A program made the translations under genes and the position numbers. Below the pieces are notes generated by a model, which saw nothing but the letters and a program-made list of their open reading frames with translations, made no database searches and was not told the origin of the DNA. A stretch of 26,008 bases of DNA, from NCBI RefSeq assembly GCF_041929185.1, contig NZ_JBHFNO010000043.1, one strand, 5' to 3'. Within the stretch, counting starts at the first letter, position 1. Each line of letters begins with the position of its first letter. This stretch comes from Aerosakkonema funiforme BLCC-F2 (lineage in GTDB: Bacteria; Cyanobacteriota; Cyanobacteriia; Cyanobacteriales; Aerosakkonemataceae). Positions 10,894-25,946 of this stretch are shown here, piece by piece.

Positions 10894-11050
10894 CTCCCCG
10901 TCCACGGGGAGGGGTGAAACAGGTGTAGGGGGAGGGGTGAAACAGGTGTAGGGGGAGGGGTGAAACAGGTTCGCGGGGAGGGGTGAAAGAGGTGTAGGGG
11001 GAGGGGTGAAACAGGTTCGCGGGGAGGGGTGAAAGAGAGAGGGGCTTCAG
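10894..11050. repeat. six tandem 23-bp G-rich units (AGGTGTAG/AGGTTCGC + GGGGAGGGGTGAAAC); first unit preserves a CTCCCCG-loop-GGGGAGGGGTGAAAC hairpin resembling the CRISPR repeat 3' half
   Basis: Units end at 10920, 10943, 10966, 10989, 11012 and 11035 (period 23). G-tracts GGGGAGGGG x6 on the + strand. Lies in the convergent gap between the fibrillin-like gene and the last gene of the cas operon. Confidence 0.8.
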
Positions 11051-11113: not shown

Positions 11114-11734
11114 CTAATCAACGCATTTGACGCTTTTGATACTGCCATTTTTTAAGGCTGTTATTTTTACTTTTACGATCTGCCCTTGCTGGAGAGAACT
11201 CGCTTTTTTCGGTTCTTTTTCAGTCAATTTAATCGCGCCTAATATTTGATATGTCACTTTATTACCTGCAATGCCAATAACTTGGGCATCTAAGATTTGA
11301 TCGATCGCAAAATCTTGAGATTGCGTCACTTGTAAAATTTCGGCTTGCCGAGTAGATTCTATGACAGGAGCGGTAATTTCGCCGATCGGTCCCGCTTCTT
11401 TGTAGTAGCGCATTAAGCGAATTGACCACCCTAAAATTTGCAGGATAGCTGTTACATCATTTTGATAAAGTTGCAAATATTTGGTGCAAGTTCTTTCTAT
11501 GCTATCATAATATCCAGATGTTTTTTGGCTATATCCGATTCTATTACCTTGGCGGGAAAGTGTTTGCAGATAACTAAAAAATTTCGTGCCGGCATTTTCG
11601 CGATCGCTATAAGCGCGAAGATATGCCATCACTTTACCCAATTCATTTACATCAGTCTCTTCTTTGACCAATGTTTGAGCAATTCCGTGAGCAATTTGCC
11701 ATTGAATTTCGGTTAAATCGGTGGTAGTAAACAT
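11114..11734 (-). CDS. hypothetical protein, terminal gene of the type III operon (alpha-helical N-terminal half, Lys/Val-rich beta-rich C-terminal tail)
   Basis: 206 aa. Start abuts the stop of the upstream RAMP gene (11735), implying co-transcription. No recognisable motif; N-half resembles small alpha-helical Cas11-type subunits only in composition. Confidence 0.55.
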   Translation of the reverse strand: MFTTTDLTEIQWQIAHGIAQTLVKEETDVNELGKVMAYLRAYSDRENAGTKFFSYLQTLSRQGNRIGYSQKTSGYYDSIERTCTKYLQLYQNDVTAILQILGWSIRLMRYYKEAGPIGEITAPVIESTRQAEILQVTQSQDFAIDQILDAQVIGIAGNKVTYQILGAIKLTEKEPKKASSLQQGQIVKVKITALKNGSIKSVKCVD

Positions 11735-12775
11735 TTAATAAACTCCGTCTATAGGTTCTCTAGTTGTCGGCCATTGCAGAACTTGTTGTAACTCTTTCAA
11801 TTGTTGAGATTGTACTAATTGGGTGGATGCCGATCGCACGGCTTTTTGGATGAATTCCTGGAGGGAATTACCAGTCAGAGAAGGGGGTGAGGTGTTGTAA
11901 TTGCAATAGCGATCGCGCCATTCTTTCTCTTTTTCAATCCGCTGAATTTCTGTTACTTCAACTACCATCGTTCCCATACCAATTGGTTTACCGCCTCCCA
12001 CTTTTAAAGCAATGGGATTTTTACTATCTTGTCCTAACACAATCAACAGCGTTCCCAATTCGGCTAAACTTAAATTCCTAAATCCAATTTGGGTAGTAAA
12101 TATCAATTCTTTTCCCGCTTGTTGAACTGGAATACCTTGTTGTCCTTTGTCAATCGATTTAACAAAATGGTAATAAAACTTGCGTCCAGCTATTCTTCCA
12201 TTTATATAGTAGCCGGCACGTTGTTTTCTGGGTGCATAAAGTGAGGGCATAAATCCCACACTCCACTGTGCATTGTTGAGAATCGCATCAGAAAAGCGAA
12301 TCAAACCTTGCCAATCCATTGCCCCAAAAACTTGACAAGCCGGACAAAGTTTAGTATTATCTTTACATTCCCGATAACCATTCGGAATTTGACTCTGTTC
12401 TGCCTTAGTTTTGCACAAACAACTGCGCGTAATTGCTTCATAAGCAGAACGCACAACGCCTTTAAGGGAACTTCCCGGAACGATCGACTGTCGATCGCGT
12501 CCAACGGCAGTTTTGATTAGGGGGATATTTTTGGCATTTCCCGATAAGTCGCTACCCATTGCGACAACGCCAGAAGCGACAAAAGTAGCGGTTTTCACCG
12601 TTAAGCGCAGAAAGATTGTACCGCTAATGCGATCGCTTTTAAACCGATCTTGTCCAATTGGTTTATCTCGCGGTGGCGGCTGACTGGGTAGAGAAATGAG
12701 TTGATAAGGTTTTGGATTAGCAGTTTCTGGTGCAGGATTAGGTTGAGGGCGTCGAATTGGTCGATTGTTAGTCAT
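11735..12775 (-). CDS. Cas7-group RAMP with zinc finger (Csm5-like subunit of a type III-D complex)
   Basis: 346 aa. RAMP G-rich loop IVPGSSLKGVVRSAYEAI, Zn finger CKDNTKLCPACQVFG, C-terminal glycine loop KVGGGKPIGMG. Pro-rich N-terminal extension. 4-nt overlap with the upstream gene. Confidence 0.7.
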   Translation of the reverse strand: MTNNRPIRRPQPNPAPETANPKPYQLISLPSQPPPRDKPIGQDRFKSDRISGTIFLRLTVKTATFVASGVVAMGSDLSGNAKNIPLIKTAVGRDRQSIVPGSSLKGVVRSAYEAITRSCLCKTKAEQSQIPNGYRECKDNTKLCPACQVFGAMDWQGLIRFSDAILNNAQWSVGFMPSLYAPRKQRAGYYINGRIAGRKFYYHFVKSIDKGQQGIPVQQAGKELIFTTQIGFRNLSLAELGTLLIVLGQDSKNPIALKVGGGKPIGMGTMVVEVTEIQRIEKEKEWRDRYCNYNTSPPSLTGNSLQEFIQKAVRSASTQLVQSQQLKELQQVLQWPTTREPIDGVY

Positions 12776-13287
12776 GGGGATATCTCAACAGTGAGAGCGA
12801 TAAAATGTACCGTGGAAGTTTCGCGATCGATGAAATAACGTTGAGCTATTTTAACTTTGTTTGGATTATTCTTTTCATCCTTAATTATGGGATTGAGAGC
12901 GTCAGGTACAATGAATTTTTGGGGAAACCGAGTTTCATCGGGACGATAAATGTAAGCAGGTCGTTGTTCTACTTTCCACTCTATCTTTTTATCTTGTTCC
13001 TTTTTTTTATCTCGTTCCTCATCAATAGAAGTGAAAGCAGAATCTTTACCAGTTATTGACAGCAATAATACTGAATAACCTTGACCTTGTTGTTTCCAAC
13101 GCAATTCGCGATCGCAATTAAACATTTGTCCTTCTGGACTGGGAAATTCTTTTAATTCCTCTACAATTCCACTGACGCGATCTTGCCACCGAAGAAAGTA
13201 ATAAGTAGGCTTTTTCGCAAATTTATCTAGCAATTTTCTGAGATCTTCAGATGAGTCAACTTGTTTAATACCTACAAAAGGATTCAT
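12772..13287 (-). CDS. hypothetical protein occupying the position of csx19 (all1473 family) in type III-D operons
   Basis: 171 aa. ATGA-type 4-nt overlaps with both flanking RAMP genes (13284 and 12775). Lys/Glu-rich central segment. No motif recognised; assignment is positional only. Confidence 0.5.
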   Translation of the reverse strand: MNPFVGIKQVDSSEDLRKLLDKFAKKPTYYFLRWQDRVSGIVEELKEFPSPEGQMFNCDRELRWKQQGQGYSVLLLSITGKDSAFTSIDEERDKKKEQDKKIEWKVEQRPAYIYRPDETRFPQKFIVPDALNPIIKDEKNNPNKVKIAQRYFIDRETSTVHFIALTVEISP

Positions 13288-14234
13288 GCTGCTGTCCCTT
13301 GCAATATTTCACACCAAGCTTCTACAGTTTGCGAGAACAATTCACGCACTTTATCGCTCCCTTCCCAACTCTGTTGCACGCCAAAATTAAACTCAATTGG
13401 TGTTGTTTTTGGTGATGTTTCTTTCAGATCGTTAGGGGGAAAACCATAGCGGTTTCTTTCTTCATCTTCCAGAAACATTCCCGCACCCAATAAGGAAGTA
13501 AGCGGCCATTTTGTTTCTGTGCCGATCGCGCTAATTTGTTCATCTTTTATAATACAGCCAGGATATTGGACAACGGCTGAATTTAACTTAACTTCCACCA
13601 ATCCCAAACCGCGAGATTTAGCGAAACCTAATCCAAACCAACCTTGATTTAAATCGCGCAATACTAAACCGATTAATCCTAATTGTGCAAGGGTAAAATT
13701 TCTGAGATGAATTTTGGTATGAAATTCTCCGGCGGTACAAACTTGAAAATTAAATGGCCCTACAGCGACCGAACCAAACACTCTGTCAATAGCTACGCCA
13801 TTGCGTTCTTCAATTTTCAACAATTTGGGATTAACCGGATAAGCATCTTCTATTCTGACGCGACTGGCGATCGCAGTATTGCCAAACATTTGATCGGTAA
13901 AAGAAGACAATTTATAGATATCTGACGTTGATTTATTTTGCAGATATTCGTATTTGTCATTGAGTGGATCGTTTGCCCATAAACTATTTGCATTATTGGG
14001 GTCGCGGCGATCGCTTCCCACCGTCCGCACAATGCGTTCCGCATGGGCGCGAATAGCACCTTTGAGAGAACTTCCGGGTAAGTAAATTGTCCGTCCTCCG
14101 CCGTGATAGGTTTCCACAAATTCCATATCCGGTTTCGTAGGGTCAGCACCTTCTTTGCCAGATTTAATTAAGATAGGGCCAGCAGGTGTGATGGTTAATT
14201 TTATTGTACATTGATTGACAAATCGTTTAAACAT
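13284..14234 (-). CDS. csm3: Csm3 (Cas7) RAMP backbone subunit
   Basis: 316 aa. YLPGSSLKGAIRAHAERI (G-rich loop 1), QMFGNTAIASRVRIEDAY, NGVAIDRVFGSVAVGPFNFQVCTAG (thumb), GFAKSRGLGLVEVKL (glycine loop). Confidence 0.8.
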   Translation of the reverse strand: MFKRFVNQCTIKLTITPAGPILIKSGKEGADPTKPDMEFVETYHGGGRTIYLPGSSLKGAIRAHAERIVRTVGSDRRDPNNANSLWANDPLNDKYEYLQNKSTSDIYKLSSFTDQMFGNTAIASRVRIEDAYPVNPKLLKIEERNGVAIDRVFGSVAVGPFNFQVCTAGEFHTKIHLRNFTLAQLGLIGLVLRDLNQGWFGLGFAKSRGLGLVEVKLNSAVVQYPGCIIKDEQISAIGTETKWPLTSLLGAGMFLEDEERNRYGFPPNDLKETSPKTTPIEFNFGVQQSWEGSDKVRELFSQTVEAWCEILQGTAA

Positions 14235-15126
14235 TGCTGTTTTCCTCGGCAGTGGTATTAGCAGACATGAAAGTTCTTAAATGGGTAATCAAAGCATTTG
14301 TCCATTCCTGTTTGAGGAAAGCAATTCTTTCTGGATAACATGAGTAAATATCCATTTTTCCGTTAACCAGATTTTGCAGGTAATTTAGTAATAATTCTGG
14401 ATCGTCTTCTGCATCAAACCATTGCATTTCTTTAATATCCAATTTCACTACACCCAATCCGCGAGAACGTCCGCCGCCTAACGGAATTTGTTCGGTTTCA
14501 AATTGGTGTAACCCGATGGTTAATAAACCTAATTCCCAAGGTTCGGCGTTTTCAACTACTGCTTTAAACTCAAATTGCGTTCCTGCCGGTACAACTTGAA
14601 AATCGTATAATTTCGCATCAGCAGCAGTTTCGGTATCGCGATCGATCGCAACTCCATCTCGTTCTTGATATTGTCCAAACCAACTATCTGGTAATACCGT
14701 TAAATCGCGCACTTGAAATTTACTCGCAATCCAAGGAGAACCGAATAAGTGAGAAGCTAAATCGGTTTCTTTTAAAATTGCAGTGGTGAGGTCAAAATCA
14801 TCTTTGTTTTCGTCCTTAAGTTTCTTGATTTCATCAGCTTTTAGCGACCATTCCTCCTCTACGGCGGGATTGGCGACTAATTTGCGTAGGGCAATGCCCT
14901 TGTTGAAGGCATCGCTTCCCACAATCCCGCGCAGGAAGCTTTCCAAACGCGATCGCAAAGCACCTTTAAAACTCGACCCCGGAATTAAAGGTCGTCCCAC
15001 CGCATCTTTAATTACTGGTAAATCGGAACCGATTGGTTCTGTGGAACGTCCCGCGCCAATTCGCAAAGCGGTGATAGTGGTGAGAGTTCCGCTGATTTCC
15101 AAACGACTTTTGAAAGTATCAAACAT
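14227..15126 (-). CDS. csm3: Csm3 (Cas7) RAMP backbone subunit, second paralog
   Basis: 299 aa. LIPGSSFKGALRSRLE, HLFGSPWIASKFQVRD, DGVAIDRDTETAADAKLYDFQVV, GGGRSRGLGVVKLD. 8-nt overlap with the downstream csm3. Confidence 0.8.
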   Translation of the reverse strand: MFDTFKSRLEISGTLTTITALRIGAGRSTEPIGSDLPVIKDAVGRPLIPGSSFKGALRSRLESFLRGIVGSDAFNKGIALRKLVANPAVEEEWSLKADEIKKLKDENKDDFDLTTAILKETDLASHLFGSPWIASKFQVRDLTVLPDSWFGQYQERDGVAIDRDTETAADAKLYDFQVVPAGTQFEFKAVVENAEPWELGLLTIGLHQFETEQIPLGGGRSRGLGVVKLDIKEMQWFDAEDDPELLLNYLQNLVNGKMDIYSCYPERIAFLKQEWTNALITHLRTFMSANTTAEENSNV

Positions 15127-15140
15127 AGTTTACCTTATTT

Positions 15141-15707
15141 TCAATTTAAACTCAACCAGCTAAACACATCTTGCGCGGATAACTGTAAATCTTCCAGAGA
15201 ACTTAACACGGGTAAATTGTCTTGATTTTCCTTAGTTTCTGGTTGTTGACCTGGACGAAAAACCATGATAATTTTCTCTTCAGGATCGATTAACCAGCCT
15301 AATTCTGTTCCCGCATTTAAACAAAAAAGGATGTTACCAATCACGCGAGTTGAGCTTTGTTCTGGGGAAAGAATTTCAATTACCCAATCTGGATGAATGG
15401 AAAAAGAATTTTCGATTTCGCCGTTAGCATCTAAAGGGATACGTTGCCAAGAAAAAACGCTGATATCTGGCACAATTGAACGACCGCCAAAGGTGCAACG
15501 CAATTCTGTAAAAGCACTAGCTAAACGATTAGGTTCGCCTACCCTATTAATTTCGGTTGAGAAGCGAGTTTGCAATCGGCTATGTTTTCCTTTTGGCATA
15601 GGTTTTTGATAGATTTGTCCGTCTATATATTCACTAGCTGGTTTAGTTTCTGGGAGTTGCAGAAATTCGGCTAATGATATTTTGGTGGAAAGTTTTGTGG
15701 ATGTCAT
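15141..15707 (-). CDS. Uma2-family (DUF820) PD-(D/E)xK endonuclease inserted inside the type III effector operon
   Basis: 188 aa. Hallmark Uma2 motifs LAEFLQLPE...EYIDGQI (N-terminal) and VPDISV...PDWVIEILSPEQS (PD...EIxSP core). 29-nt and 14-nt gaps to the flanking csm2 and csm3 genes on the same strand. Confidence 0.75.
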   Translation of the reverse strand: MTSTKLSTKISLAEFLQLPETKPASEYIDGQIYQKPMPKGKHSRLQTRFSTEINRVGEPNRLASAFTELRCTFGGRSIVPDISVFSWQRIPLDANGEIENSFSIHPDWVIEILSPEQSSTRVIGNILFCLNAGTELGWLIDPEEKIIMVFRPGQQPETKENQDNLPVLSSLEDLQLSAQDVFSWLSLN

Positions 15708-15736
15708 GGTTGAACAATTGATAATTTAAAAACAAA

Positions 15737-16144
15737 TTACTTGGAATTGATGTATTTCAAGTATCGAGCGCCATACCCCAAGTAGCGGCGAATTAATTCT
15801 AACCAAATAGATTTGAAATCAGAACCAGAAATTTCTTTGTGAATAACATTAGCTTTCTGCTTGATTTGAGTATCAATATCATTGACAATTTTTGCTGCTA
15901 ATGAATTGTCACCTCTTCCCCATTTCTTATCGCGCCCGACTTGATAGCGCAAGAAATTTTTAATCACTTCTGGGCTATCGGTTGTATCTGCAACGCGCAC
16001 TAAGTTGCGAAATTGAGTTTCTTGTAAGTCGCCATAGGATTGACGATTGTCTAAAGCTGCTTGAATCCATAACACTAAATCATCTTCAGCAAGACGGATG
16101 TTTTTTTGTACTTTGAGTTCTATCTGTTGTTCTGCTAGGTTCAT
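15737..16144 (-). CDS. csm2: Csm2 (Cas11) small subunit
   Basis: 135 aa, all-alpha composition. LQETQFRNLVRV matches the Csm2 LTTSQ(I/L)RK motif; NFLRYQVGRDKK and RRYLGYGARYLKY match the (V/F)xYQxGRE and C-terminal aromatic/Gly motifs of Csm2 (compared with the S. thermophilus Csm2 sequence recalled from memory). ATGA overlap with the upstream RAMP gene. Confidence 0.6.
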   Translation of the reverse strand: MNLAEQQIELKVQKNIRLAEDDLVLWIQAALDNRQSYGDLQETQFRNLVRVADTTDSPEVIKNFLRYQVGRDKKWGRGDNSLAAKIVNDIDTQIKQKANVIHKEISGSDFKSIWLELIRRYLGYGARYLKYINSK

Positions 16145-17376
16145 ACAGCGTTTTCCCGAAATACTAAATGAAATTCATTGCAAACCTGAACTTGACCGAA
16201 TCCTTCCGAAGTACGTTCCCCAACTCCTTTTAATTCTAAATTCCCTAATGCTCGATACCAAATGTCTGGCGAACTTGTACTAAACAAATACACGGCACCT
16301 TTATTGGTAACTAATTCTACATCTTTCATCAATCCCCATGCGGTATTCCAGCCAGAACGATAATCGTAGCTGGTATATGCAACGTGCAGTTTTAAAGAAG
16401 GGTCATCGATCGCAGCATACTTTTTCAACATTCTATCATTAATTACTGTGGTACGTTGCCAATTTTCAGTAAAAATGGCATCGGATTGTAAATCAATGGT
16501 GAAATAGGTGCGGTCTAATAGCAAATCTTGCTGGGTTTCGCCAAAGATTTCTCCCCACTTTTGCCATCTTTTTTTAAGTTCATCGTTAAACTTGGCGATC
16601 CGAGGTTCTACTGTCGCTGCGGCGTTACCTATGTCTGCGATAATTTCCGCTTTTCCTAATCCCCGCGATGCAGAACCACCCAATCGAAAAGAATGGCGAT
16701 TGATAAAATCAGTTAGGTTATTAGCTAATTCCTCATTGTCTAATAAAATTTTGCTGCGATAGGTAGCAGGTTCCTCTTTTCCTTCCACTTCATTTAATAC
16801 TTCAATGCTGTAAAGCACCTGTTCTTCAGAAGTGGCGCGACGGCGGTTGATACCGACTCGCGTTAGCAGTCGAGTCGTGGTTGAAAGTTGATAGTAATTG
16901 TTACCGACACAAGCATAAAAACCGCTATAAGGTTCTACTCTTCCACAGTCTACCGGACAATTTGGATCGTAAGGATGGTTGTAACCTCCGGCGCAAAAAC
17001 GATCGATCAACGTATCGAAGACACCGTGCTTTTTGGGATCTGTTTTAAAACCGGGATTGGTTTTAGAACTAACTGCTGTGGCGGGGAGTACCTGAATTGG
17101 ATTAGGTAGCAAGGTTGGTTTATCTTGAATTTTGGCGATCGCAGGATAACCATTCTGGAAAATTGCCGCATTTTCGCCTAAGAATAAGCTGTGGAAGTCG
17201 TCACCTGCTTCTGGTGTGGGGGATTCAGATTCGCGGAGGATTCCAGATGCGATCGCACCCCTGATTACCGATGCGGGTATATAGCTTTCGGCTTCACTGA
17301 CGGAACCACCAGGCTTTTGTCGTCCAATGGCTAACGGTGAAGCTGCTGTAATTGTTAGTTGAATTTCGTAAGTCAT
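16141..17376 (-). CDS. Cas5-group RAMP (Csx10/Csm4-like large RAMP subunit)
   Basis: 411 aa. N-terminal LTITAASPLAIG...YIPASVIRGAIASGIL (Cas5/Csm4-type start) and C-terminal glycine loop GGSASRGLGKAEI. The size fits Csx10 of type III-D. Confidence 0.65.
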   Translation of the reverse strand: MTYEIQLTITAASPLAIGRQKPGGSVSEAESYIPASVIRGAIASGILRESESPTPEAGDDFHSLFLGENAAIFQNGYPAIAKIQDKPTLLPNPIQVLPATAVSSKTNPGFKTDPKKHGVFDTLIDRFCAGGYNHPYDPNCPVDCGRVEPYSGFYACVGNNYYQLSTTTRLLTRVGINRRRATSEEQVLYSIEVLNEVEGKEEPATYRSKILLDNEELANNLTDFINRHSFRLGGSASRGLGKAEIIADIGNAAATVEPRIAKFNDELKKRWQKWGEIFGETQQDLLLDRTYFTIDLQSDAIFTENWQRTTVINDRMLKKYAAIDDPSLKLHVAYTSYDYRSGWNTAWGLMKDVELVTNKGAVYLFSTSSPDIWYRALGNLELKGVGERTSEGFGQVQVCNEFHLVFRENAV

Positions 17377-17378
17377 TC

Positions 17379-17411
17379 GATTTTGGATTTTAGATTTTGG
17401 ATTTTGGATTG
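17379..17411. repeat. STRR-like heptamer tandem repeat (GATTTTG x4) in the 51-bp gap between two cas genes
   Basis: gattttggattttagattttggattttggatt read directly. Confidence 0.6.
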
Positions 17412-17427
17412 TCTATGTCGGATATTT

Positions 17428-18141
17428 TTAAGTTTTTAAAGCATTCCAAACGTTATCATCAATTTTTAGGTCTGGAAATTTCCAATGCAACCAACCTAAA
17501 CCACCTGATTTACTACCACCTAAAGCATGGATGTGATGTAATGCTGCGAATAAAAGCGGTTTAGTATAGGCGGGACAATCCGGTAAAAAATGAATGTGAC
17601 TGGAAAATTCGAGTTGGATATTTGCGGGAGATGTTTCTAAGAGAAATAGCTTTTGGTCTTCGGAAGTACGACGGCGGCGATTGATGGTAACGCCGGGACG
17701 CAATACTTCTGGGAGATTTTCTGCTTTTTCGTTGCAAATGAGGTCATCAAATAGCAGGCGCGAAGGTAAGGCGGGATTGCCAAATATTTGACAAATCAGA
17801 CAGTGATAACGTTCATCTCCTTCTACTTGATAATCTGGACGATGAAATTTTATTTCTTCGTTTTCTGGAAATTTTGCGCGTTGGGGACACATGGTTTGGG
17901 GGTTGGGAGATTCGCAGATTTTCCAATGCAAACCTCTGGCTATTTTTTCGCATTCGTGACGCAGGCGACCTTTGAATTGAGAAGCGGGAATTAGTAATTT
18001 TCCGGTTGCTGTGCGAACAATTGGTTTATCTGCTAGTGTTCCCGATGTACCGCCTGCGCCAACGCACAAAGCACTGTCTATTACCGCAGTTATGGATAGA
18101 GATTCTGTTGAATTTTGCCTTAAGTTTTGGAGTTGGATCAT
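17428..18141 (-). CDS. Cas7-group RAMP with zinc finger (Csm3-like, first backbone subunit after cas10)
   Basis: 237 aa. LLIPASQFKGRLRHECEKI, Cys cluster CESPNPQTMCPQ...HCLICQIFG, glycine loop GGSKSGGLGWLHW. Confidence 0.7.
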   Translation of the reverse strand: MIQLQNLRQNSTESLSITAVIDSALCVGAGGTSGTLADKPIVRTATGKLLIPASQFKGRLRHECEKIARGLHWKICESPNPQTMCPQRAKFPENEEIKFHRPDYQVEGDERYHCLICQIFGNPALPSRLLFDDLICNEKAENLPEVLRPGVTINRRRRTSEDQKLFLLETSPANIQLEFSSHIHFLPDCPAYTKPLLFAALHHIHALGGSKSGGLGWLHWKFPDLKIDDNVWNALKT

Positions 18142-18245
18142 CAGTTTCCTCCCGTTGATATTGTATCTTGAATGCTTGCAATATCCATCGGTTAAGAATA
18201 TTTAGACCTTGGAAGGGCGAAGCATTCGGACAGAAAACTTAGGGT

Positions 18246-20774
18246 TTAAGTAGATAAATTGTCGCCCGAATGCTTCGCCCCTACATTTAACCTATCTGTA
18301 TCTTGAATTTTGGCGTCAAGGGTTTGCGAAACTTCGATAAAAGGATAAAGGTCTACTAACTCGCGCCAAATAGTTTCGTAAGTGGACTTTTTTAATAAGT
18401 TTAAAATCACACTTTGTAACTGAACTTGACTGGTTGGTAAAAGTTTTAAGGAAAACATTAGAACTACTTTCCTGAAGATTCCAGCCTTCTCAAAAAGCCA
18501 AGGGGCTAAGTAACCATCATTTGTTGCTGCTTGACACCAAGCATCCTCAAAATTTTCTTTTAGTAACTGTTGTTCTTTTGAACCCAAACGCACGCGGAAA
18601 TAACGATAGTTGAGGATGGCGGTGTTTTTGCCTCGTTCCAGTAAACTGCGAATTTGATAGAGTTGCGATCGCGGAAATCCCGACTGTTTTATTGCTTTGG
18701 CTGTTTCCAGCAGTCCGCCTAGTTCATGCAGCGTGTAAGGTGCAGCATGAAGTTTGAGTTTTTGGTTATCTTTGATCGATTTGGTTAAACCTTCTCGGCG
18801 GAACGAACTGATATTTGATGATATCATTGTAACTGATTTCATCACCAAAAAGTCAACCGTACCGCCATAATAATGATAGTGTTTTTTCAACTCTTTAGCA
18901 CGCGCTTTCGCAGATTTGAGTAACTGTTCCGTTAATTTTTGAGCGTAATAAATCGGCGTGGTGTAGGCGGTAATCAAAACACCGATCGACATACTCAATT
19001 GACATTCGGAGGGGTTCTGTGGCGGCGGTTGGTAACGATGACAGGCGATTGATTTCGCATCATCTCGCTGGGATGCGGGAATTTCATATCTTTTTCCTAA
19101 ATCAGTTAATCGCTTCTCGAATTCTTCACCGATCGTTTGCGCGATCGCCAATGCTTTATCTGCTGGTACAATCAGCAATACATCGTCACCGCCAATAGTT
19201 AAAATTTCAAAGGGATGAATGACAACACCATTTCGATGTTGATGTTCTTTTCCAGTTAAGCCACTTAACCGATGGGGCTTTAGATGCGTGAGAGCTTCAT
19301 AAACTGAATTTTCCGTTGCATCGAAAATATCTTCACTAAACTGAGCGTAATCCGCTGGAGTTTTAATCTTTTGGATGTAGCCACCCATATTGTTACCATC
19401 TGCATAAATGTAAGCAACAAATCCATTGCTAGCATTGCCGATTTCTGTGAGCGATCGCGCTTGCTGAATTCCGCTATTGCTAAAACCTGCGTAATATTTG
19501 CGCCAACGTTCTAACTTGAGTAAAAACCGCTCAAACTTATTGACCCAACTTTCTACTTCTCCGGGTTGCCATTCAAGTTTTGTGCGTTCGTACCATTCTC
19601 GTTCTTGTTCTTCCTTCGAGATTTGACCTATTATTCGCTTACGCGCTAACGCTTCCGAAAACCAAGGTTCGTTGGGAAGCTCAGTCGCATGAAAAATAGC
19701 AGAACGGCAATCCCCTTCATCCCTTTTCAAGTAAGGATGAGTATCAAAAATCGGCGGGTAGCAACGGCTGGGACGTTCTGAACCAGGTAAATCGTTACCG
19801 CTGCGTCGGTGATTAAATTGTGCGGCTAATTTACCTGCTAATTCGTTAAAACTTTTGCGATTATTAAATAATTCTCCCCAATTTTCTTCTCCTTCTAAGC
19901 TACCGAAGTAAGCTTTTACTAAATCATTGTTGCGATTTTTTTCGTGATTGTTGCGATTTTTTTCGTACCAATCTAGCCAGAGTGTTTGTTCAATTGGATC
20001 GCGCAGCAACCCAAAACGCACTTCTAGTAATTTGAAGCTATCCCCAACAGCACAAGAGTTAGCCGTTAAAGTTTGTTCGGTATAACGCCGTTCAATCGCA
20101 TTCGCTAAATCGTCGATGTAAGCAGCAGGACAAAATGCGAGGATATTACCACCCGTTGAATAGATTATCAGTTCTGGGATGAGAGCATCTGAAAGCTTGA
20201 GATTATCTGCATCACCGGGAAAGCAGTTATCTAACCACTGTTTTACTTCTTCGCAGTGTGCTGTGTAACGGGGAGACTCTGGCGGTTTTCCGAAAAAAGC
20301 GGGTAAGTCGATCAGATTGATTCGATCGAGTAGTGCAGAAGCACCCCGGATGTCTTGCAGCTTAGCCGCTTCAAAAACGTAACCTTTAATTTTGGTAGCA
20401 CCGCCATAAACTAAGCCGATGGGAGTATTCCACGCTTGAGGATTTTCCCGTTGCAAGGCTTCAAAGGTTTGACGTAGTTTTTCAGCGGTGTCTGGAAACT
20501 TCAGGTTATCGATTTTTTGCGCTTGTTCTAGAAATGGTTGAATTGCAGCTGGAATACTTTTTCCTTCTTTGAGAGTCTGTTTAATTGTCTGCAACTCGGA
20601 TAGGTCGAACAGAGGTGTGGGTCGATCGCCCCAGGCGAGACACCAAGCGATTCCTATCGAAAGCTTCGTTGATATTGTCATCATACCATTTTGCAAAGTT
20701 TTCACTCTAAAGGACTTTTTTCCAAATCTGGGTAATGCCAACATTCCCAAACTCTTTGCTGTATTTTGACACAC
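18246..20774 (-). CDS. cas10: Cas10 (Csm1/Cmr2-type large subunit) with intact GGDD cyclase palm motif and no recognisable N-terminal HD nuclease motif
   Basis: 842 aa as listed. The start at 20774 is GTG; alternative ATG starts lie at residues 11 and 31. Palm motifs AYIYADGNNMGG and ILTIGGDDVLLIVPAD, Cys cluster, GASALLDRI. The first 150 residues contain no H-D dyad in HD-domain context. Confidence 0.85.
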   Translation of the reverse strand: MCQNTAKSLGMLALPRFGKKSFRVKTLQNGMMTISTKLSIGIAWCLAWGDRPTPLFDLSELQTIKQTLKEGKSIPAAIQPFLEQAQKIDNLKFPDTAEKLRQTFEALQRENPQAWNTPIGLVYGGATKIKGYVFEAAKLQDIRGASALLDRINLIDLPAFFGKPPESPRYTAHCEEVKQWLDNCFPGDADNLKLSDALIPELIIYSTGGNILAFCPAAYIDDLANAIERRYTEQTLTANSCAVGDSFKLLEVRFGLLRDPIEQTLWLDWYEKNRNNHEKNRNNDLVKAYFGSLEGEENWGELFNNRKSFNELAGKLAAQFNHRRSGNDLPGSERPSRCYPPIFDTHPYLKRDEGDCRSAIFHATELPNEPWFSEALARKRIIGQISKEEQEREWYERTKLEWQPGEVESWVNKFERFLLKLERWRKYYAGFSNSGIQQARSLTEIGNASNGFVAYIYADGNNMGGYIQKIKTPADYAQFSEDIFDATENSVYEALTHLKPHRLSGLTGKEHQHRNGVVIHPFEILTIGGDDVLLIVPADKALAIAQTIGEEFEKRLTDLGKRYEIPASQRDDAKSIACHRYQPPPQNPSECQLSMSIGVLITAYTTPIYYAQKLTEQLLKSAKARAKELKKHYHYYGGTVDFLVMKSVTMISSNISSFRREGLTKSIKDNQKLKLHAAPYTLHELGGLLETAKAIKQSGFPRSQLYQIRSLLERGKNTAILNYRYFRVRLGSKEQQLLKENFEDAWCQAATNDGYLAPWLFEKAGIFRKVVLMFSLKLLPTSQVQLQSVILNLLKKSTYETIWRELVDLYPFIEVSQTLDAKIQDTDRLNVGAKHSGDNLST

Positions 20775-21032
20775 CTATGGAAGACCCCCGTTCCAATTAA
20801 GCAACTAGACTGGTTGCCAAGTGCGGATCTTACACCTGCTTATAAAGCCCGCCAGCAATTCAAATCGCTGGCTAATAGTAAAAGTCGTCTTTAGACGACT
20901 GGTTAAAGAATACCAGTCTACTTTAGTAGACTTGAGCTATCAGCCTGGGGTTTGAACCCCAGGCGGGCTATTGGTAACGGTGAGTACACCCGGATTAAAG
21001 ACCAGATGTATCAGCACATCATCTTTAGCTTT
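20775..21032 (-). promoter_or_regulatory. cas10 upstream leader with three consecutive stem-loops and a thrice-repeated GACTGGT(T/A) motif
   Basis: Hairpins AGTCGTC-TTTA-GACGACT (20883-20900), AGTCTAC-TTTA-GTAGACT (20915-20932) and CCTGGGGT-TTGA-ACCCCAGG (20944-20963). AGACTGGTT at 20807, CGACTGGTT at 20896 and its reverse complement ACCAGTCT at 20912. Confidence 0.3.
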
Positions 21033-21452
21033 CTATTCAAGTTTGATAGAGAGTTTTAACGCCAACCCCAAACGCTGGCATAACAAAGAAAGGCGGACAC
21101 TTAGGCAAAAATTCTTTGTCAGAGCTTGAATCGCTGCTAAAGCAATAGATTGAGCCGTTGAATTATTAAGTTTAGCAGGCTCGGTTTCAATTTTGGAGGA
21201 ATCCTGGTTGATGGGGAGATATCCTTGCTGGTAAGCGGGCTTTTCGGCTAGTGGCATCTGCAAAATGCTTACTTGTGTGGGTGTAGTAACCCGTGTAGCC
21301 TGCTCCGTAAACAGTATGTTTGTAAGATTGAATGGCTGTACAACCTTGTGTAACGCTGGGTTGTAGAAAGTTTGACAGTTGCCCAACTGCAAATAACTCA
21401 AGCAGTTAGACTTTTCAACTACGGTAGTTCCGTAGAAATCTGCTGTTTTCAT
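21033..21452 (-). CDS. hypothetical ORF upstream of cas10 (low confidence, may be non-coding leader)
   Basis: 139 aa. Low-complexity Leu/Ser/Gln-rich product with no motif. Same strand as cas10, separated from it by 258 bp of hairpin-rich DNA. Confidence 0.25.
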   Translation of the reverse strand: MKTADFYGTTVVEKSNCLSYLQLGNCQTFYNPALHKVVQPFNLTNILFTEQATRVTTPTQVSILQMPLAEKPAYQQGYLPINQDSSKIETEPAKLNNSTAQSIALAAIQALTKNFCLSVRLSLLCQRLGLALKLSIKLE

Positions 21453-21495: not shown

Positions 21496-21586
21496 TAGAC
21501 ATCTCCAGAAATTAAAGGTGCGTTAGCTGGAACCCTTGTAGAGACGTTTCATGAAACGTCTCTATAATGTTTTTTGGAGATGTCTA
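21496..21586 (+). terminator. nested palindrome: 12-bp outer inverted repeats (TAGACATCTCCA / TGGAGATGTCTA) enclosing a 12-13 bp perfect hairpin (TAGAGACGTTTC-AT-GAAACGTCTCTA) followed by T6
   Basis: Inner hairpin 21538-21565, T-run 21570-21575: an intrinsic-terminator shape on the + strand. Sits between the 139-aa ORF and the CRISPR leader. Confidence 0.4.
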
Positions 21587-21691
21587 CTGAATGTTGAGTC
21601 AGTTAAATCTTTAGTTGGTGGTGGCCACGCTGGAATTTTCATATGTTTCTCTACAAACTAATGTCTACAATTATAGTATTGAAACTAAGTA

Positions 21692-21725
21692 TTGACTTTT
21701 AGAGAAAATAAGAGTATCTTATATA
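21692..21725 (+). promoter_or_regulatory. candidate sigma70-type promoter in the AT-rich leader of the mini-array (TTGACT-N17-TATCTT)
   Basis: ttgact 21692-21697, 17-nt spacer, tatctt 21715-21720, followed by tatatat. Lies about 15 nt upstream of the first repeat. Confidence 0.25.
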
Positions 21726-21737
21726 TGTATAGTTAAA

Positions 21738-21929
21738 CAAAAACCTAAAAACTCCCCGTAAGGGGATTGAAACTCGCTCTTTCAGTGCTGACACACTTGT
21801 CGAGTCAGTGTTCAATACTTCCCCGCAAGGGGACTAAAACCTCAAAACTATTGCACAGTGCTTATTGCTAAGTAAACCAGCGATCGGCTACTACCCCTTG
21901 CTGGAAAAGGGGCAGTAGCTTATGAAAGC
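21738..21929 (+). CRISPR. decayed CRISPR mini-array: two recognisable repeats with one 31-nt spacer (period 67) plus a third strongly degenerate repeat-like hairpin
   Basis: R1 ...AACTCCCCGTAAGGGGATTGAAAC ends at 21773. R2 ...ACTTCCCCGCAAGGGGACTAAAAC ends at 21840. R3-like CTACCCCTTGCTGGAAAAGGGGCAGTAGCTTATGAAAGC ends at 21929. Conserved CCCCG-NN-GGGG hairpin plus (A/C)TTGAAAC 3' handle, as in cyanobacterial type III-associated repeats (recalled). An isolated ATTGAAAC also occurs at 21678. Confidence 0.6.
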
Positions 21930-21974
21930 TTTGTTCTGGTGTGTCGGCTTATTCCCCAAATGGGGACGGAAAGA

Positions 21975-22571
21975 TTACGAACTCGCCATCGCACCTTGCT
22001 GCAACTCTCTCACCACCCATTCCAATTCCTCGACCATCCAACTGCTACTCAACTGGCGGTAAATCTGCAATTGTTCTTGATAAAGCCATAACACCCCTTC
22101 CTTACCGCCTCGGAAATAATGCCAAATTTCTTCGCCAAATTGCCTAAAATTAACCAACATAGTCCGCGCATTGTGCAACTTATCCGCCAGCATCACGCGC
22201 TGGACTGGCGGACAAGCATCGCGTAACTGTTGGAGATATTGCTGTTTGTGTTCCCTCCAAGTCGGATATAAACTCGGTTCTGGCTCGGTGCAACCTTCTA
22301 TAATATGGAAAACGCGATCGCCAAATCGCTGCAAAATTTCCGCCTTCGTTACTTCTCCCCCTCGGTCTTCCAGCGCATCGTGCAATAAAGCAGAAATTGC
22401 CTCATCTTCATCTCCTCCATCTTCCAACACCAAAGCCGCGACGCTCAACAAATGGGCAATATAAGGAGTACCTGTAATTTTCCGTTGTTGGTCGCCATGA
22501 AGTTGCGCCGCATATACCAACGCTTCCTGAAAACGCGAAGTTAAAATTGTCAAACACCGTTCATTCTTCAT
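21975..22571 (-). CDS. small alarmone hydrolase (SAH; Mesh1/SpoT-like HD-domain (p)ppGpp/(p)ppApp pyrophosphohydrolase family)
   Basis: 198 aa. GTPYIAHLLSVA...AISALLHDALED...ILQRFGDRV...MLADKLHN align motif-by-motif with human Mesh1 (GTPYINHPIGVA...AALLHDTVEDT...HFGAQV...KLADKLYN; sequence recalled from memory). ATG lies 11 nt inside the 3' end of the upstream WYL gene (overlap in a different frame). Confidence 0.8.
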   Translation of the reverse strand: MKNERCLTILTSRFQEALVYAAQLHGDQQRKITGTPYIAHLLSVAALVLEDGGDEDEAISALLHDALEDRGGEVTKAEILQRFGDRVFHIIEGCTEPEPSLYPTWREHKQQYLQQLRDACPPVQRVMLADKLHNARTMLVNFRQFGEEIWHYFRGGKEGVLWLYQEQLQIYRQLSSSWMVEELEWVVRELQQGAMASS

Positions 22572-23976
22572 AATTTTTCCATTCTCGTTCGATTTCTTTC
22601 CTCGCCTGTTCTCGTAATTCCACAGGGAGGAGAATTTCTACATTCGGTCGCCACGCACGCAAGCGCTGCATTACATTAGGATCGCCTTGGCGATATTGCG
22701 CTTGGTAATAAGCATCTTGGGGAGAACGTTTGCGCCAAATATTTAACATCTTTTGTTGTTGTTCTCCCTTTAAGTTCTGCCGAATTAATCGTTCTACTTC
22801 TTGATATGCCACTCGCGCAAAGGTAGCATGGCGCATAGTATTGCGGATGTAGCGATTATCCCACTCGCGATCGAACCTCAATAGTAGCAGTTGTGCGGGT
22901 TGATAGTAATCAAAACCCCAAACTTCTGCGATCGCTAATTGGATATCATCGGGAATAGGCAGAGTATTCTTTTGATATCGCTGTTTCAGCGCCACTGGAA
23001 CTTGCGAATCTTCCCAACTCAAAGGGATCGAATCCTGAATGCGATCGAGTCGATAATTGCGAAAATCTAATTTTCCCGATTCGTCTTGCGGAACTTCGCC
23101 AAACGCACACAGATACGGCCCTCTCTGATAATAATAAATGCAAACCGGATAAACTACCACCGACAAAGTTGTTTGCCAAACCGCACTTTCATAACTTAAC
23201 AAAATCGGCGGTACAACTTCCTTTTGCCAAAGTTCCCGCAGTTGTGCTTGCCATTCCTCCACGCGATCGATCGAGTCTTGGGGAATCACATATTCCAGAT
23301 GGATAAAAAAGCGCTGCTGACCATTCAATCGCGTCGAAAGATTATCTGCGATCGCAGCCAAATCCGGTTGCGTGAGAAAATCCAAATTGTAAGCTATCAG
23401 ACGAGAATCTGATTTTTGGATCGAACTCGGCGTCCGTGGATATTTCTTAACCCGATAATACCGATTTCCTTGGCGTTTCAGCCACCCGATTTCTATCAAA
23501 ACTTGCAAATCGCCATAAAGCGATCGTCTTGTCAAGCCAAACAAACGAGTATCGTGCAACAATTCTTTAAGGTTATCCGGTAACAAATGATGTTCCCGCA
23601 AAGATTGTTCAAACGATCGCTCTTTTTCCTGCACTTCCGGCTTCCCTAATTCCCCTTTCCACTTTGACTGAGTTAAATTGAAATTAGAGCCAAATAACCA
23701 AGCCGCAACAGTTTTGGCACAACGGCATTTCGGGTCGTGCAACGCCGGAATTTCTTCTTCTCTAGTATGAGTCGCAGTAAAAAAAGCATCTCGCCATTCA
23801 GGATAAGTAAAATTTTCCGGCAAATTCAACTTAATGCCGGCTTCCCCATACAGAAAGTGCAGCCACACCCACAACCGCACCGCCTGTAGCAATCTTTGTT
23901 TTAAATCTCCCCGCGCCAGCCATTGCAGTAGTTCCACGCGAGGAGGTTCATTCCAAAAGGGGCCGATCGTTTCCAA
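22561..23976 (-). CDS. WYL-domain transcriptional regulator (wHTH + WYL + C-terminal extension), CRISPR-associated type
   Basis: 471 aa. wHTH-like LLHDTRLFGLTRRSLYGDLQVLIEIGWLKRQGNRYYRV. WYL-domain signature VVVYPVCIYYYQRGPYLCAFGE...FRNYRLDRIQ (YL...RLDRI). Translationally coupled to the SAH gene. Confidence 0.7.
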   Translation of the reverse strand: METIGPFWNEPPRVELLQWLARGDLKQRLLQAVRLWVWLHFLYGEAGIKLNLPENFTYPEWRDAFFTATHTREEEIPALHDPKCRCAKTVAAWLFGSNFNLTQSKWKGELGKPEVQEKERSFEQSLREHHLLPDNLKELLHDTRLFGLTRRSLYGDLQVLIEIGWLKRQGNRYYRVKKYPRTPSSIQKSDSRLIAYNLDFLTQPDLAAIADNLSTRLNGQQRFFIHLEYVIPQDSIDRVEEWQAQLRELWQKEVVPPILLSYESAVWQTTLSVVVYPVCIYYYQRGPYLCAFGEVPQDESGKLDFRNYRLDRIQDSIPLSWEDSQVPVALKQRYQKNTLPIPDDIQLAIAEVWGFDYYQPAQLLLLRFDREWDNRYIRNTMRHATFARVAYQEVERLIRQNLKGEQQQKMLNIWRKRSPQDAYYQAQYRQGDPNVMQRLRAWRPNVEILLPVELREQARKEIEREWKNYEE

Positions 23977-24089
23977 GCTACTCTCCCGATTTCAGCGATT
24001 TGCCTTCCTTTCTAAGTATGCCTCATCTTGGAAGCAGGTGCTTCCACCAGTTTGATACAGTAGCAATAACTCAATGAACCTATTATTTA
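23977..24089. promoter_or_regulatory. divergent intergenic region between the WYL regulator and csx3-like gene, with small palindrome GGAAGC-AGGT-GCTTCC
   Basis: 113 bp between divergent starts; palindrome at about 24034-24049. Confidence 0.3.
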
Positions 24090-24446
24090 ATGTCAGCCAT
24101 TCAATTACAACTGTTTCGGGAGCAAACCCAGTCAGGTCTGACCTACCAACACCTGCACATCCAAATCAATACACCGGATGGACTGATTGCACCAGCCGAC
24201 CTGAAAAATTTATCCCTACCGGAGGAAATGGTCTGGAGTCAAGGCGTTGTCATTGAAGGTAAAGCGCCAATTTGGTTGTACGCCTATTTAGTTCACGCTT
24301 GTCACCCCGCCGCTTGGGTAGCTTGCTTCGACCCCCGCTTAGAAGGTGCAGTTATAATTGCTACACACAGTCGCCAAGTCGCACTCGGAGATATTCTCAA
24401 ACTCAACTTACCCGCAGCCATATTTCGCAAAACAACAGGTACGTAG
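24090..24446 (+). CDS. csx3: Csx3/Crn3-like cyclic-oligoadenylate ring nuclease (stand-alone, catalytic His/Asp/His pattern present)
   Basis: 118 aa, the size of stand-alone Csx3. GKAPIWLYAYLVHACHPAAWVACFDPRLEGAVIIATHSRQVALGD has H-(+9)-D-(+12)-H spacing similar to the His60/Asp69/His80 Mn site of A. fulgidus Csx3 (numbers recalled, not checked). Adjacent to type III genes; has a paralog at 25014. Confidence 0.5.
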   Translation: MSAIQLQLFREQTQSGLTYQHLHIQINTPDGLIAPADLKNLSLPEEMVWSQGVVIEGKAPIWLYAYLVHACHPAAWVACFDPRLEGAVIIATHSRQVALGDILKLNLPAAIFRKTTGT

Positions 24447-25013: not shown

Positions 25014-25946
25014 ATGAATACGATCGCCTTACAAAAACAAGTTGAACTGCAAGTCACCGAACTGAAAACCGCACAAGGAAGTTATCAAACTTTGGCGATT
25101 AGCTTAGTGATGTTCCAGGAACTAATAAAAACTGATGTACTCGCACAATTGAAACTTCCTGACGAACTAGACTTGAGCAGAGAAGTAATTTTATACGGTA
25201 TAGCTCCTACTTGGTTGTATGCCAATTTAGTAGAACGCTGTTGGCAAGCGCCTTGGATAGGATGCTATACAGCGCCAAAAAATCAAATTGTTGTAATTCA
25301 AAGTCGGATATCAACAATAAGTATAGGCGATGCGATACCTGTATTGCTTAACAACATTCCTTGTCCGGCAATTTTAATAGGTGGTTCGCCTGACAGCGGC
25401 AAAAGCGTTTTATCGAATGCTTTGCGTTTTAATTTGATGAAAACCGGAGCATTCAAACGAGTATTTGTACATCGCGCTTCTTGGGATGGTGAGGGAAATT
25501 GGGTTTACGAAGTAGCGAATCGGGATTTAGCTAAAAAGCTGATTGTAGAAAACGAGTTTCGATTGCACGAAAATCCCGAAACGGCGAAGTTAATACCGAA
25601 ATTCTTTAAATATCATAGCTCGGCGGTACAGAATTTGCGGGAAGTTGTCGATTTGGTTTTGGTTGATGTGGGTGGTAAACCGCAGCAAGAGAAAGCGCCT
25701 CTGGTCGCACAATGTACGCACTATATAATTATTAGTAAAGAATCAGATGAGATTCCCAAATGGCACGAGCTTTGTCATCCAACTTTGCAGCCGTTAACGG
25801 TGATTCACAGCGTCCGACAAAAACGAGAAGAAGTTTGGCAAAAACAACCTTTTTTGGAAATCATCGACGGACGCTGGTGCGAAGGTGAAATCCAGTCTGT
25901 TCCCGATATCTTGCTGGAAAATGTGCTTAGGGTTTTGCACGCCTAG
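25014..25946 (+). CDS. Csx3-like N-terminal domain (catalytic His residues substituted) fused to a P-loop NTPase domain
   Basis: 310 aa. N-terminal YGIAPTWLYANLVERCWQAPWIGCYTAPKNQIVVIQSRISTISIGD is clearly paralogous to the 24090 gene, but its His positions are E/W/R. Walker A GGSPDSGKSVLSNAL and Walker B-like LVLVDVGG. Confidence 0.5.
   Translation: MNTIALQKQVELQVTELKTAQGSYQTLAISLVMFQELIKTDVLAQLKLPDELDLSREVILYGIAPTWLYANLVERCWQAPWIGCYTAPKNQIVVIQSRISTISIGDAIPVLLNNIPCPAILIGGSPDSGKSVLSNALRFNLMKTGAFKRVFVHRASWDGEGNWVYEVANRDLAKKLIVENEFRLHENPETAKLIPKFFKYHSSAVQNLREVVDLVLVDVGGKPQQEKAPLVAQCTHYIIISKESDEIPKWHELCHPTLQPLTVIHSVRQKREEVWQKQPFLEIIDGRWCEGEIQSVPDILLENVLRVLHA

Follow-up and report, generated by a model that had tools for sequence, protein, structure and literature searches.

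The window analyzed here is a 26,008-nucleotide stretch of contig NZ_JBHFNO010000043.1 (assembly GCF_041929185.1) from the cyanobacterium Aerosakkonema funiforme BLCC-F2. It carries a type III-D CRISPR locus in which a gene for a WYL-domain regulator runs directly into one for a small alarmone hydrolase (SAH). WYL and SAH genes share one operon in more than 60 other cyanobacterial type III CRISPR loci, that of Synechocystis 6803 included, and the palindrome TGGAA-N8-TTCCA recurs upstream of wyl-SAH, csx3, and cas10. That regulator and hydrolase form a conserved, coregulated module is, in our judgment, very likely. The best overall explanation, a WYL regulon made up of cas10, csx3, and wyl-SAH with the SAH as its reset arm, stands at about even chances, and the reset role of the SAH taken by itself is put forward tentatively.

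The SAH is covered by Pfam HD_4 over residues 17 to 138 of its 198 (E 7e-23, 81.5 bits against a cut-off of 27.2) and by NCBIfam spoT_relA through the hydrolase part only (profile positions 1 to 122 of 687). This hydrolase domain is the sole one; synthetase, TGS, and ACT domains are absent, as in other hydrolase-only RelA/SpoT homologs. The top relative of solved structure is 7QOE, RelH of Leptospira levettii (E 4e-40, alignable over residues 10 to 176), followed by RelH of Corynebacterium glutamicum (7QOC/7QOD) (PMC9293644). Alignment to 7QOE and the motif description given in PMC9293644 place all of HD1 to HD6 (R30/K31, H40, H64/D65, E68/D69, D130/K131, and N134), with R30 of HD1 retained as the base-stacking arginine. 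The hydrolase pattern that the initial annotation read from the letters is intact (GTPYIAH at residues 34 to 40, LLHDALED at 62 to 69, and KLHN at 131 to 134), and the catalytic motifs are invariant across 64 WYL-linked homologs, with D69E as the single exception. We infer a catalytically competent, Mn-dependent 3'-pyrophosphohydrolase of the RelH type, the chemistry of which is probably hydrolysis of the alarmones (p)ppGpp and/or (p)ppApp. Like the RelH-type SAHs (those of L. levettii and C. glutamicum, Mesh1, and PaSAH), the protein combines a single HD_4 domain, about 200 residues, six HD motifs, and a C-terminal helical extension. Unlike those enzymes, described as products of stand-alone stringent-response or (p)ppApp-detoxifying genes, members of its clade are encoded in an operon with a CRISPR-specific regulator. 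Its nearest relatives are from filamentous cyanobacteria (94% identity to a protein of 'Planktothrix sp. FACHB-1355'). No PADLOC model matches the SAH, which is thus not a catalogued defense component. A recent phage or anti-defense origin is not supported, since relatives in a phage genome collection were all below 40% identity and none came from cyanophages.

The protein encoded upstream of the SAH is indeed a WYL-domain regulator, as first noted, with full-length matches to NCBIfam TIGR03985 'CRISPR-associated protein' (297.2 bits against a cut-off of 60; profile positions 1 to 249 of 249) and to PADLOC HTH-WYL (PDLC01046; E 1e-162, residues 8 to 470, profile positions 3 to 434 of 435). The score for Pfam WYL lies exactly at the threshold. 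An AlphaFold2 model (pLDDT 81.8) places a winged helix-turn-helix at about residues 136 to 175 and the Sm-like beta-barrel of a WYL domain at 258 to 318, the two-domain architecture of TIGR03985 regulators. The initial annotation had cast the protein as a predicted ligand sensor; it is not a novel sensor, but a member of a known family (cluster 36 'HTH-WYL' of Shah et al. 2019, to which Sll7078 belongs). The window protein itself does not differ from that family, being a full-length member in the same type of locus with the same divergence from csx3-AAA; the conserved SAH partner and the predicted operator TGGAA-N8-TTCCA are new and appear in none of the literature searched. Its nearest relatives are again from filamentous cyanobacteria (97% identity to a protein of Aerosakkonema sp. 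BLCC-F183), and an exact-match look-up of the closest WYL homolog (P0121) returned no match. By predicted fold, the protein resembles the single-stranded DNA (ssDNA)-sensing regulators DriD, CapW (from CBASS), PafBC, and BrxR (from BREX) more than any known small-nucleotide receptor. Unlike these, with which it shares 8 to 18% identity, it has a much longer N-terminal region (about 180 residues). To our knowledge, none of the four has been reported with an alarmone hydrolase partner. The long N-terminal region of TIGR03985 proteins, which other WYL regulators lack, holds an H-x3-C-x-C motif (LHDxxCxC) common to the whole family (H80, C84, and C86 in the window), with both cysteines invariant and the histidine nearly so; it could be a metal or redox site.

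The association of the two genes was surveyed from both sides. For the SAH, one genome per species was scanned and the best 80 of 567 confirmed SAH loci were kept; for the WYL protein, an independent metagenome collection yielded 74 loci with enough downstream sequence. Each scan contributed its 80 top-scoring loci rather than a full census. Open reading frames (ORFs) in the fetched loci, designated L plus a number below, were called mechanically, and neighboring cas genes were annotated by tblastn with the window proteins and by Pfam scans of cluster representatives. Of 53 cyanobacterial SAH loci, 27 had a TIGR03985 gene, which in 25 cases immediately preceded the SAH gene on the same strand; of 27 non-cyanobacterial loci, none had one. 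In a neighbor-joining tree, all linked SAHs fell into one cyanobacterial clade (27 of 44 linked), and a second cyanobacterial clade, nested among non-cyanobacterial sequences, had no linked member (0/9). Viewed from the regulator, an SAH gene followed directly downstream in 43 of the 74 metagenome loci and was never found elsewhere in the locus; where it was missing, the next gene was a convergent one, RT-Cas1-Cas2, or Cas6. Chance association of WYL and SAH is excluded by these comparative data.

The linkage is confined to type III CRISPR loci. When only WYL+SAH loci of 9 kb or more were considered, 47 of 49 contained cas genes or CRISPR arrays, and the conserved neighbor clusters of 109 WYL loci were exclusively of cas/csx type: III-A (Csm), III-B (Cmr), and III-D effectors, Csx3, Csx3-AAA, a CARF protein, and RT-Cas1. 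The window follows the same rule, its TIGR03985 gene lying within a CRISPR-cas locus. Csx3 or Csx3-AAA was encoded in 41 of 72 WYL+SAH loci and in 26 of 37 WYL-only loci; a CARF (Cas_APE2256) gene occurred in 13 of the 72 and is absent from the window. Adjacency is kept across Nostocales, Oscillatoriales, Chroococcales, Coleofasciculales, and Leptolyngbya-like lineages and in III-A, III-B, and III-D contexts. Alignment distances of the two proteins are correlated (mirror-tree r = 0.69, Mantel p = 0.001), a correlation driven partly by species phylogeny. Two outcomes that would have spoken against the initial annotation, SAH homologs with no enrichment near type III loci and a WYL-SAH pair conserved away from CRISPR as a generic module, were not found: homologs of the relevant clade are heavily enriched beside such loci, and the pair is hardly ever seen away from cas genes.

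Within this association, the spacing and order of the genes vary. The distance between wyl and SAH ranges from -44 to +392 nt and is mostly 4 to 35 nt. In Allocoleopsis PCC 7113, probably also in L005, the order is wyl / csx3 - csx3-AAA - SAH, which places the SAH in the ring-nuclease operon of the same divergent unit. On a plasmid of Allocoleopsis franciscana PCC 7113 (L164, 1-4371 and 4917-8564), this unit adjoins Tn7-like tnsA, ATP-binding, and tniQ genes, with a cas3 gene further along, and may be part or cargo of a CRISPR-associated transposon. TIGR03985 genes also head RT-Cas1-Cas2 adaptation modules, with or without an SAH gene in between (WYL-SAH-RT-Cas1 in L139, 7557-9087; further cases in L137, L138, L147, and L151), so that the TIGR03985 regulon may include RNA-spacer acquisition. 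The unlinked SAH genes have no conserved alternative neighbor, creatininase, NanE, RlmN, PAP2, and ABC genes being among those next to them. Some unlinked genes of the same clade do have neighbors with a role in nucleotide signaling: one is divergent from a gene for a minimal CRISPR polymerase, mCpol (L016 of Richelia sinica, 8252-9718), and two stand beside a 2H (2'-5' RNA ligase-like) phosphoesterase gene (L012, 7289-7801; L013, 9406-9918).

A shared palindrome ties these genes together. TGGAA-N8-TTCCA occurs twice in the window (0.05 expected) and 119 times in 1.97 Mb of fetched loci (2.2 expected), with the consensus TGGAARAAGCnTYTTCCA. It precedes 18 of 26 WYL genes, mostly 57 to 75 nt before the start codon (background 0.009 per 250 nt); four more of the 26 have a GGAA-N8-TTCC variant, and most WYL genes of the metagenome set have the palindrome upstream as well. 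Further copies lie upstream of cas10 (L001 and L005) and of csx3 or csx3-AAA (L037 and L075), and in Allocoleopsis the csx3-csx3-AAA-SAH unit has one on either side. Four SAH genes that lack a WYL neighbor (L004, L009, L038, and L056) retain it 61 to 79 nt upstream. A control set of 36 SAH genes, drawn from the unlinked clade and from non-cyanobacteria, has no upstream copy, nor does an orphan SAH gene on a Gloeothece verrucosa plasmid. This pattern of conservation suggests that TGGAA-N8-TTCCA is the operator of TIGR03985 regulators and that the SAH gene is a member of their regulon.

The pair can be followed into Synechocystis 6803, where plasmid pSYSA carries sll7078 (TIGR03985), then a gene for an 'HD domain-containing protein' (72878-73459), then the CRISPR3 array. 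The gene after sll7078 is sll7077, listed as 'hypothetical protein' in a supplementary table; in the literature searched, sll7077 appears in no main text, and the sll7078-sll7077 pair is undiscussed. Another supplementary table (PMC7283877) reports a plus-strand transcription unit, TU7074 (pSYSA 72771-73306; locus L081), antisense to sll7077. TU7074 would fit transcription of the convergent CRISPR3 array running on into sll7077.

Type III CRISPR systems signal through cyclic oligoadenylates (cOAs) and SAM-AMP, and ring nucleases reset them. We propose that the HTH-WYL protein is a DNA-binding transcription factor dedicated to type III CRISPR loci that would recognize TGGAA-N8-TTCCA and, through it, govern three units: the bicistronic operon it forms with the SAH gene, the csx3 and csx3-AAA genes diverging from that operon, and the cas10 effector operon. 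The mode of control would probably be repression relieved by a nucleic-acid signal, after the example of BrxR, CapW, and the Sll7009 result (bioRxiv paper). Because it would be coexpressed with the CRISPR regulon, the SAH would lower (p)ppGpp and/or (p)ppApp each time that regulon is turned on. Two erasers may then work in parallel, Csx3 removing cyclic tetraadenylate (cA4) and the SAH removing the alarmone that builds up as a result of damage by type III effectors to RNA and translation; alarmone removal would limit dormancy and allow recovery. This idea draws on the predicted coregulation of the SAH with Csx3 and on their co-operonic placement in some loci. The proposed analogy is with the ring nucleases (Crn1 to Crn5, e.g., Csx3/Crn3), the SAH likewise being a small, locus-encoded, putatively signal-degrading enzyme. 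Unlike them, it has an unrelated fold and chemistry (3'-pyrophosphate hydrolysis versus cOA ring opening), and its signal is not known as a Cas10 product. Of the two outputs first suggested for the pair, an off-switch for an alarmone-like signal would be the most plausible role of the SAH.

Several observations weigh against this proposal. Substrate specificity of the SAH is not deducible from its sequence, and NADPH is also a substrate of Mesh1-type enzymes. The closest structural relatives of the WYL protein, being ssDNA sensors, give no direct reason for a link to alarmones. The upstream region of the Synechocystis wyl gene lacks an exact operator and has a version with two mismatches at -65. 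Knockouts of several CRISPR3 accessory genes left interference unaffected (Shah et al., where sll7077 is unmentioned). Finally, 42% of TIGR03985 loci have no SAH gene, and of the 17 same-clade SAH genes that are unlinked, 13 lie among housekeeping-type genes and lack the operator; the incomplete presence and the unlinked copies imply that the SAH is dispensable for type III function.

The pair could instead be a dedicated alarmone arm of type III immunity, in one of two versions: a WYL receptor for (p)ppGpp/(p)ppApp or another 3'-pyrophosphorylated nucleotide with the SAH as feedback eraser, or a nucleotide messenger made by the type III system and terminated by the SAH. Both versions taken together, we regard such an arm as improbable. 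The first, a loop in which the WYL domain would bind the nucleotide that the cotranscribed SAH degrades, so that type III expression would be gated by the stringent response under negative feedback, is unlikely. Its appeal is that a regulator and a ligand-degrading enzyme in one autoregulated operon are a classic design, that the operator is kept at orphan SAH genes, and that a c-di-GMP-binding WYL transcription factor is reported in PMC11880434; yet the best structural matches of the WYL protein bind ssDNA or RNA (DriD, CapW, PafBC, and WYL1), and the many WYL loci devoid of an SAH gene speak against it.

Ranked just after that loop, and also unlikely, is a counter-measure in which the SAH would neutralize (p)ppApp or tRNA 3'-pyrophosphorylation caused by RelA/SpoT-type toxins of foreign origin, be it phages, competitors, or toxSAS modules, and would merely share the regulator of a defense island. 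SAHs are known antidotes of toxSAS and (p)ppApp toxins, PaSAH being an example (PMC9293644); the gene sits in a defense locus, often on plasmids, and 'pppGpp hydrolase + RelA' modules are listed near type III loci (Altae-Tran et al. 2023, PMC10910872). Against it, neither such a toxin partner in the loci nor a close SAH homolog in phage genomes was found. Clustering of 1145 ORFs from 109 WYL loci (top clusters annotated) gave no RelA or small alarmone synthetase (SAS), and a scan for the synthetase motif D-x-x-G-h-R ... E-h-Q-h-R-T, made with a crude regular expression and no positive control, found none in six-frame translations of 162 loci. With no synthetase detected either way, the toxin/antitoxin-like output that the initial annotation offered as its other option is rejected: neither a RelA/SAS synthetase nor another toxin partner was found in the 162 loci, and the adjacent RelA/SpoT-type synthetase toxin of a toxSAS/SAH module is missing.

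The second version of the alarmone arm, an off-switch for a CRISPR second messenger in which the SAH would degrade a nucleotide made by the type III system (e.g., a 3'-(pyro)phosphorylated adenosine species or a cOA-derived product), we place lower again, as quite unlikely. That the linked clade keeps strictly to type III loci, which are of three subtypes, would fit it, as would the shared operon of the SAH with Csx3 and Csx3-AAA in Allocoleopsis and L005 and a Cas10 with a cyclase motif and no HD domain. However, the SAH keeps every motif by which canonical (p)ppGpp hydrolases position guanine and pyrophosphate, the locus already encodes Csx3 as a dedicated cA4 ring nuclease, an enzyme able to make a 3'-pyrophosphorylated product was not found in 162 loci, and the same SAH clade also occurs outside CRISPR loci. 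Least probable, and only remotely so, is a housekeeping stringent-response gene traveling with WYL on mobile CRISPR cassettes with no link to immunity: 17 of 44 same-clade genes are unlinked, mostly among metabolic genes, and many WYL loci do without an SAH, but conservation across five cyanobacterial lineages and three subtype contexts, an operator retained before orphan copies, congruent gene trees, and a linkage that survives changes in gene order contradict it.

The nearest prior art for the WYL-SAH pair is the line on 'pppGpp hydrolase + RelA' (UAS-50) in Altae-Tran et al. 2023 (PMC10910872), which likewise places a RelA/SpoT-superfamily hydrolase with type III CRISPR loci. The architecture differs because UAS-50 includes a synthetase: there the hydrolase is paired with RelA among CARF-containing putative effectors, whereas the partner of the window SAH is a WYL transcription factor, and no RelA domain was found. 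Among 76 accessory families, Shah et al. 2019 list HTH-WYL (cluster 36), Csx3-AAA, Csx19, and Csx21 and no HD/SpoT family. Makarova et al. 2014 mention neither SpoT nor ppGpp, Hoikkala et al. 2024 left regulators and ring nucleases out by explicit choice, and a 2025 classification paper and a 2025 ring-nuclease survey leave alarmones unmentioned. No description of the pairing was found in the literature searched; an earlier mention is possible, for instance in Shmakov et al. 2018. Both proteins are ordinary members of known families (RelH-type SAH and TIGR03985 HTH-WYL), and the III-D system of the locus is of the standard cyanobacterial kind. The novelty lies in a type III accessory gene absent from earlier lists, its tie to a known regulator, and the operator prediction.

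Table 1. Coordinates of the WYL-SAH pair, its predicted operators, and the surrounding type III-D features in the window
Feature	Position	Strand	Basis
TIGR03985-family HTH-WYL CRISPR-associated regulator, 471 aa, TTG start	22561-23976	-	NCBIfam and PADLOC profiles
Small alarmone hydrolase (SAH), RelH/SpoT-hydrolase type, 198 aa	21975-22571	-	HD_4, 7QOE match, HD1-HD6 intact
Predicted WYL operator TGGAAGCAGGTGCTTCCA	24029-24046		Perfect palindrome with exact TGGAA-N8-TTCCA, 113-bp divergent wyl/csx3 intergenic region
Predicted second operator copy TGGAAGACCCCCGTTCCA	20778-20795		Directly upstream of cas10 ORF
Type III-D effector operon: cas10, csx7-like RAMP, csx10, csm2, Uma2 insert, RAMPs, csx19, RAMP, csx21	11114-20774	-	Profile matches
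Csx3/Crn3 ring nuclease gene, divergent from wyl, same operator region	24090-24446	+	Pfam Cas_csx3 1e-32; NCBIfam TIGR02579 92 bits
Csx3-AAA fusion gene (Shah et al. cluster 35 type)	25014-25946	+	PADLOC Csx3-AAA 9e-65
Decayed mini CRISPR array with two good repeats plus two remnants, convergent with the SAH 3' end	21732-21973	+	Repeats and sub-threshold Rfam CRISPR-DR18 matches

The genomic context drawn initially, with the pair between a mini-array and the Csx3 gene of a type III system, is accurate, and the subtype can be specified as III-D (Table 1). The effector operon combines a Cas10 cyclase palm domain with Csx10 (447 bits to TIGR02674) and Csx19, accompanied by Csx21; the PADLOC Csx19, Csx21, and III-D Csm2 models match at 1e-51 to 1e-90. 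Cas10 itself has the palm2 domain (E 9e-19) with GGDD and no detectable HD domain, in line with the early description of a cyclase motif without an HD nuclease; its start is probably Met31/32 of the listed ORF, because homologs align only from residue 24 to 28 on. The statement that no CARF/SAVED effector is present holds for canonical ones in the window, but Csx3 and Csx3-AAA are predicted cOA-binding proteins. A gene for a Uma2-family putative restriction endonuclease lies within the III-D operon, between csm2 and a RAMP gene (15141-15707, minus strand). Exactly at this position, the sister locus L001 has a gene for a 381-residue CARF (Cas_APE2256) protein (8495-9640); the difference looks like an in-situ swap of a cOA-sensing effector.

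The SAH and WYL ORFs overlap by 11 nt (22561-22571, read as ...TATGAAGAATGA). The overlap from which translational coupling had been proposed is real; given the range of gaps in other pairs, it is specific to the lineage of the window. The mini-array, real as well, is decayed: its good repeats end at 21773 and 21841, the last remnant ends 1 to 2 nt before the SAH stop codon, and its matches to Rfam CRISPR-DR18 stay below threshold (26 and 25 bits versus 50). An AT-rich leader spans about 21600-21731. Arrays abut the SAH 3' end convergently in the window, L007, L019, L027, and Synechocystis L081 and run in the same direction in L001; with polarity so mixed, there is no consistent transcriptional link between array and SAH. 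Cotranscription of the SAH with the CRISPR array was rejected on repeat polarity.

Several repeats and hairpins mark the rest of the locus. Between orf139 and the array leader lies a 32-nt hairpin, TTGTAGAGACGTTTCATGAAACGTCTCTATAA (21536-21567; 14 pairs, some G-T), and a closely related palindrome, TGTAGAGACGT-N8-ACGTCTCTACA, is found in L024 (8269-8298), L056 (3978-4007), and L141 (5831-5860); the family is probably a dispersed hairpin or an element resembling miniature inverted-repeat transposable elements. The spacer between cas10 and orf139 holds three short perfect hairpins, AGTCGTCTTTAGACGACT, AGTCTACTTTAGTAGACT, and GCCTGGGGTTTGAACCCCAGGC (20883-20963), and directly 3' of csx21 a G-rich unit of 23 nt (GGGGAGGGGTGAAACAGGT...) is repeated about six times in tandem (10900-11040). 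The product of orf139 (21033-21452) matches no family and clusters with no ORF of 109 related loci.

To conclude, systematic surveys have missed or set aside an SAH gene that accompanies a known regulator in type III CRISPR loci of dozens of cyanobacteria. The predicted operator TGGAA-N8-TTCCA offers an immediate handle on the regulation of these loci, and the pair is present in a genetically tractable model, Synechocystis 6803 (sll7078/sll7077). A dedicated alarmone arm, in either version, would if true be a new class of signal and off-switch in CRISPR biology. An SAH that appears catalytically intact by sequence, encoded in the predicted regulon of cas10 and Csx3, suggests a link between type III CRISPR immunity and general stress signaling.

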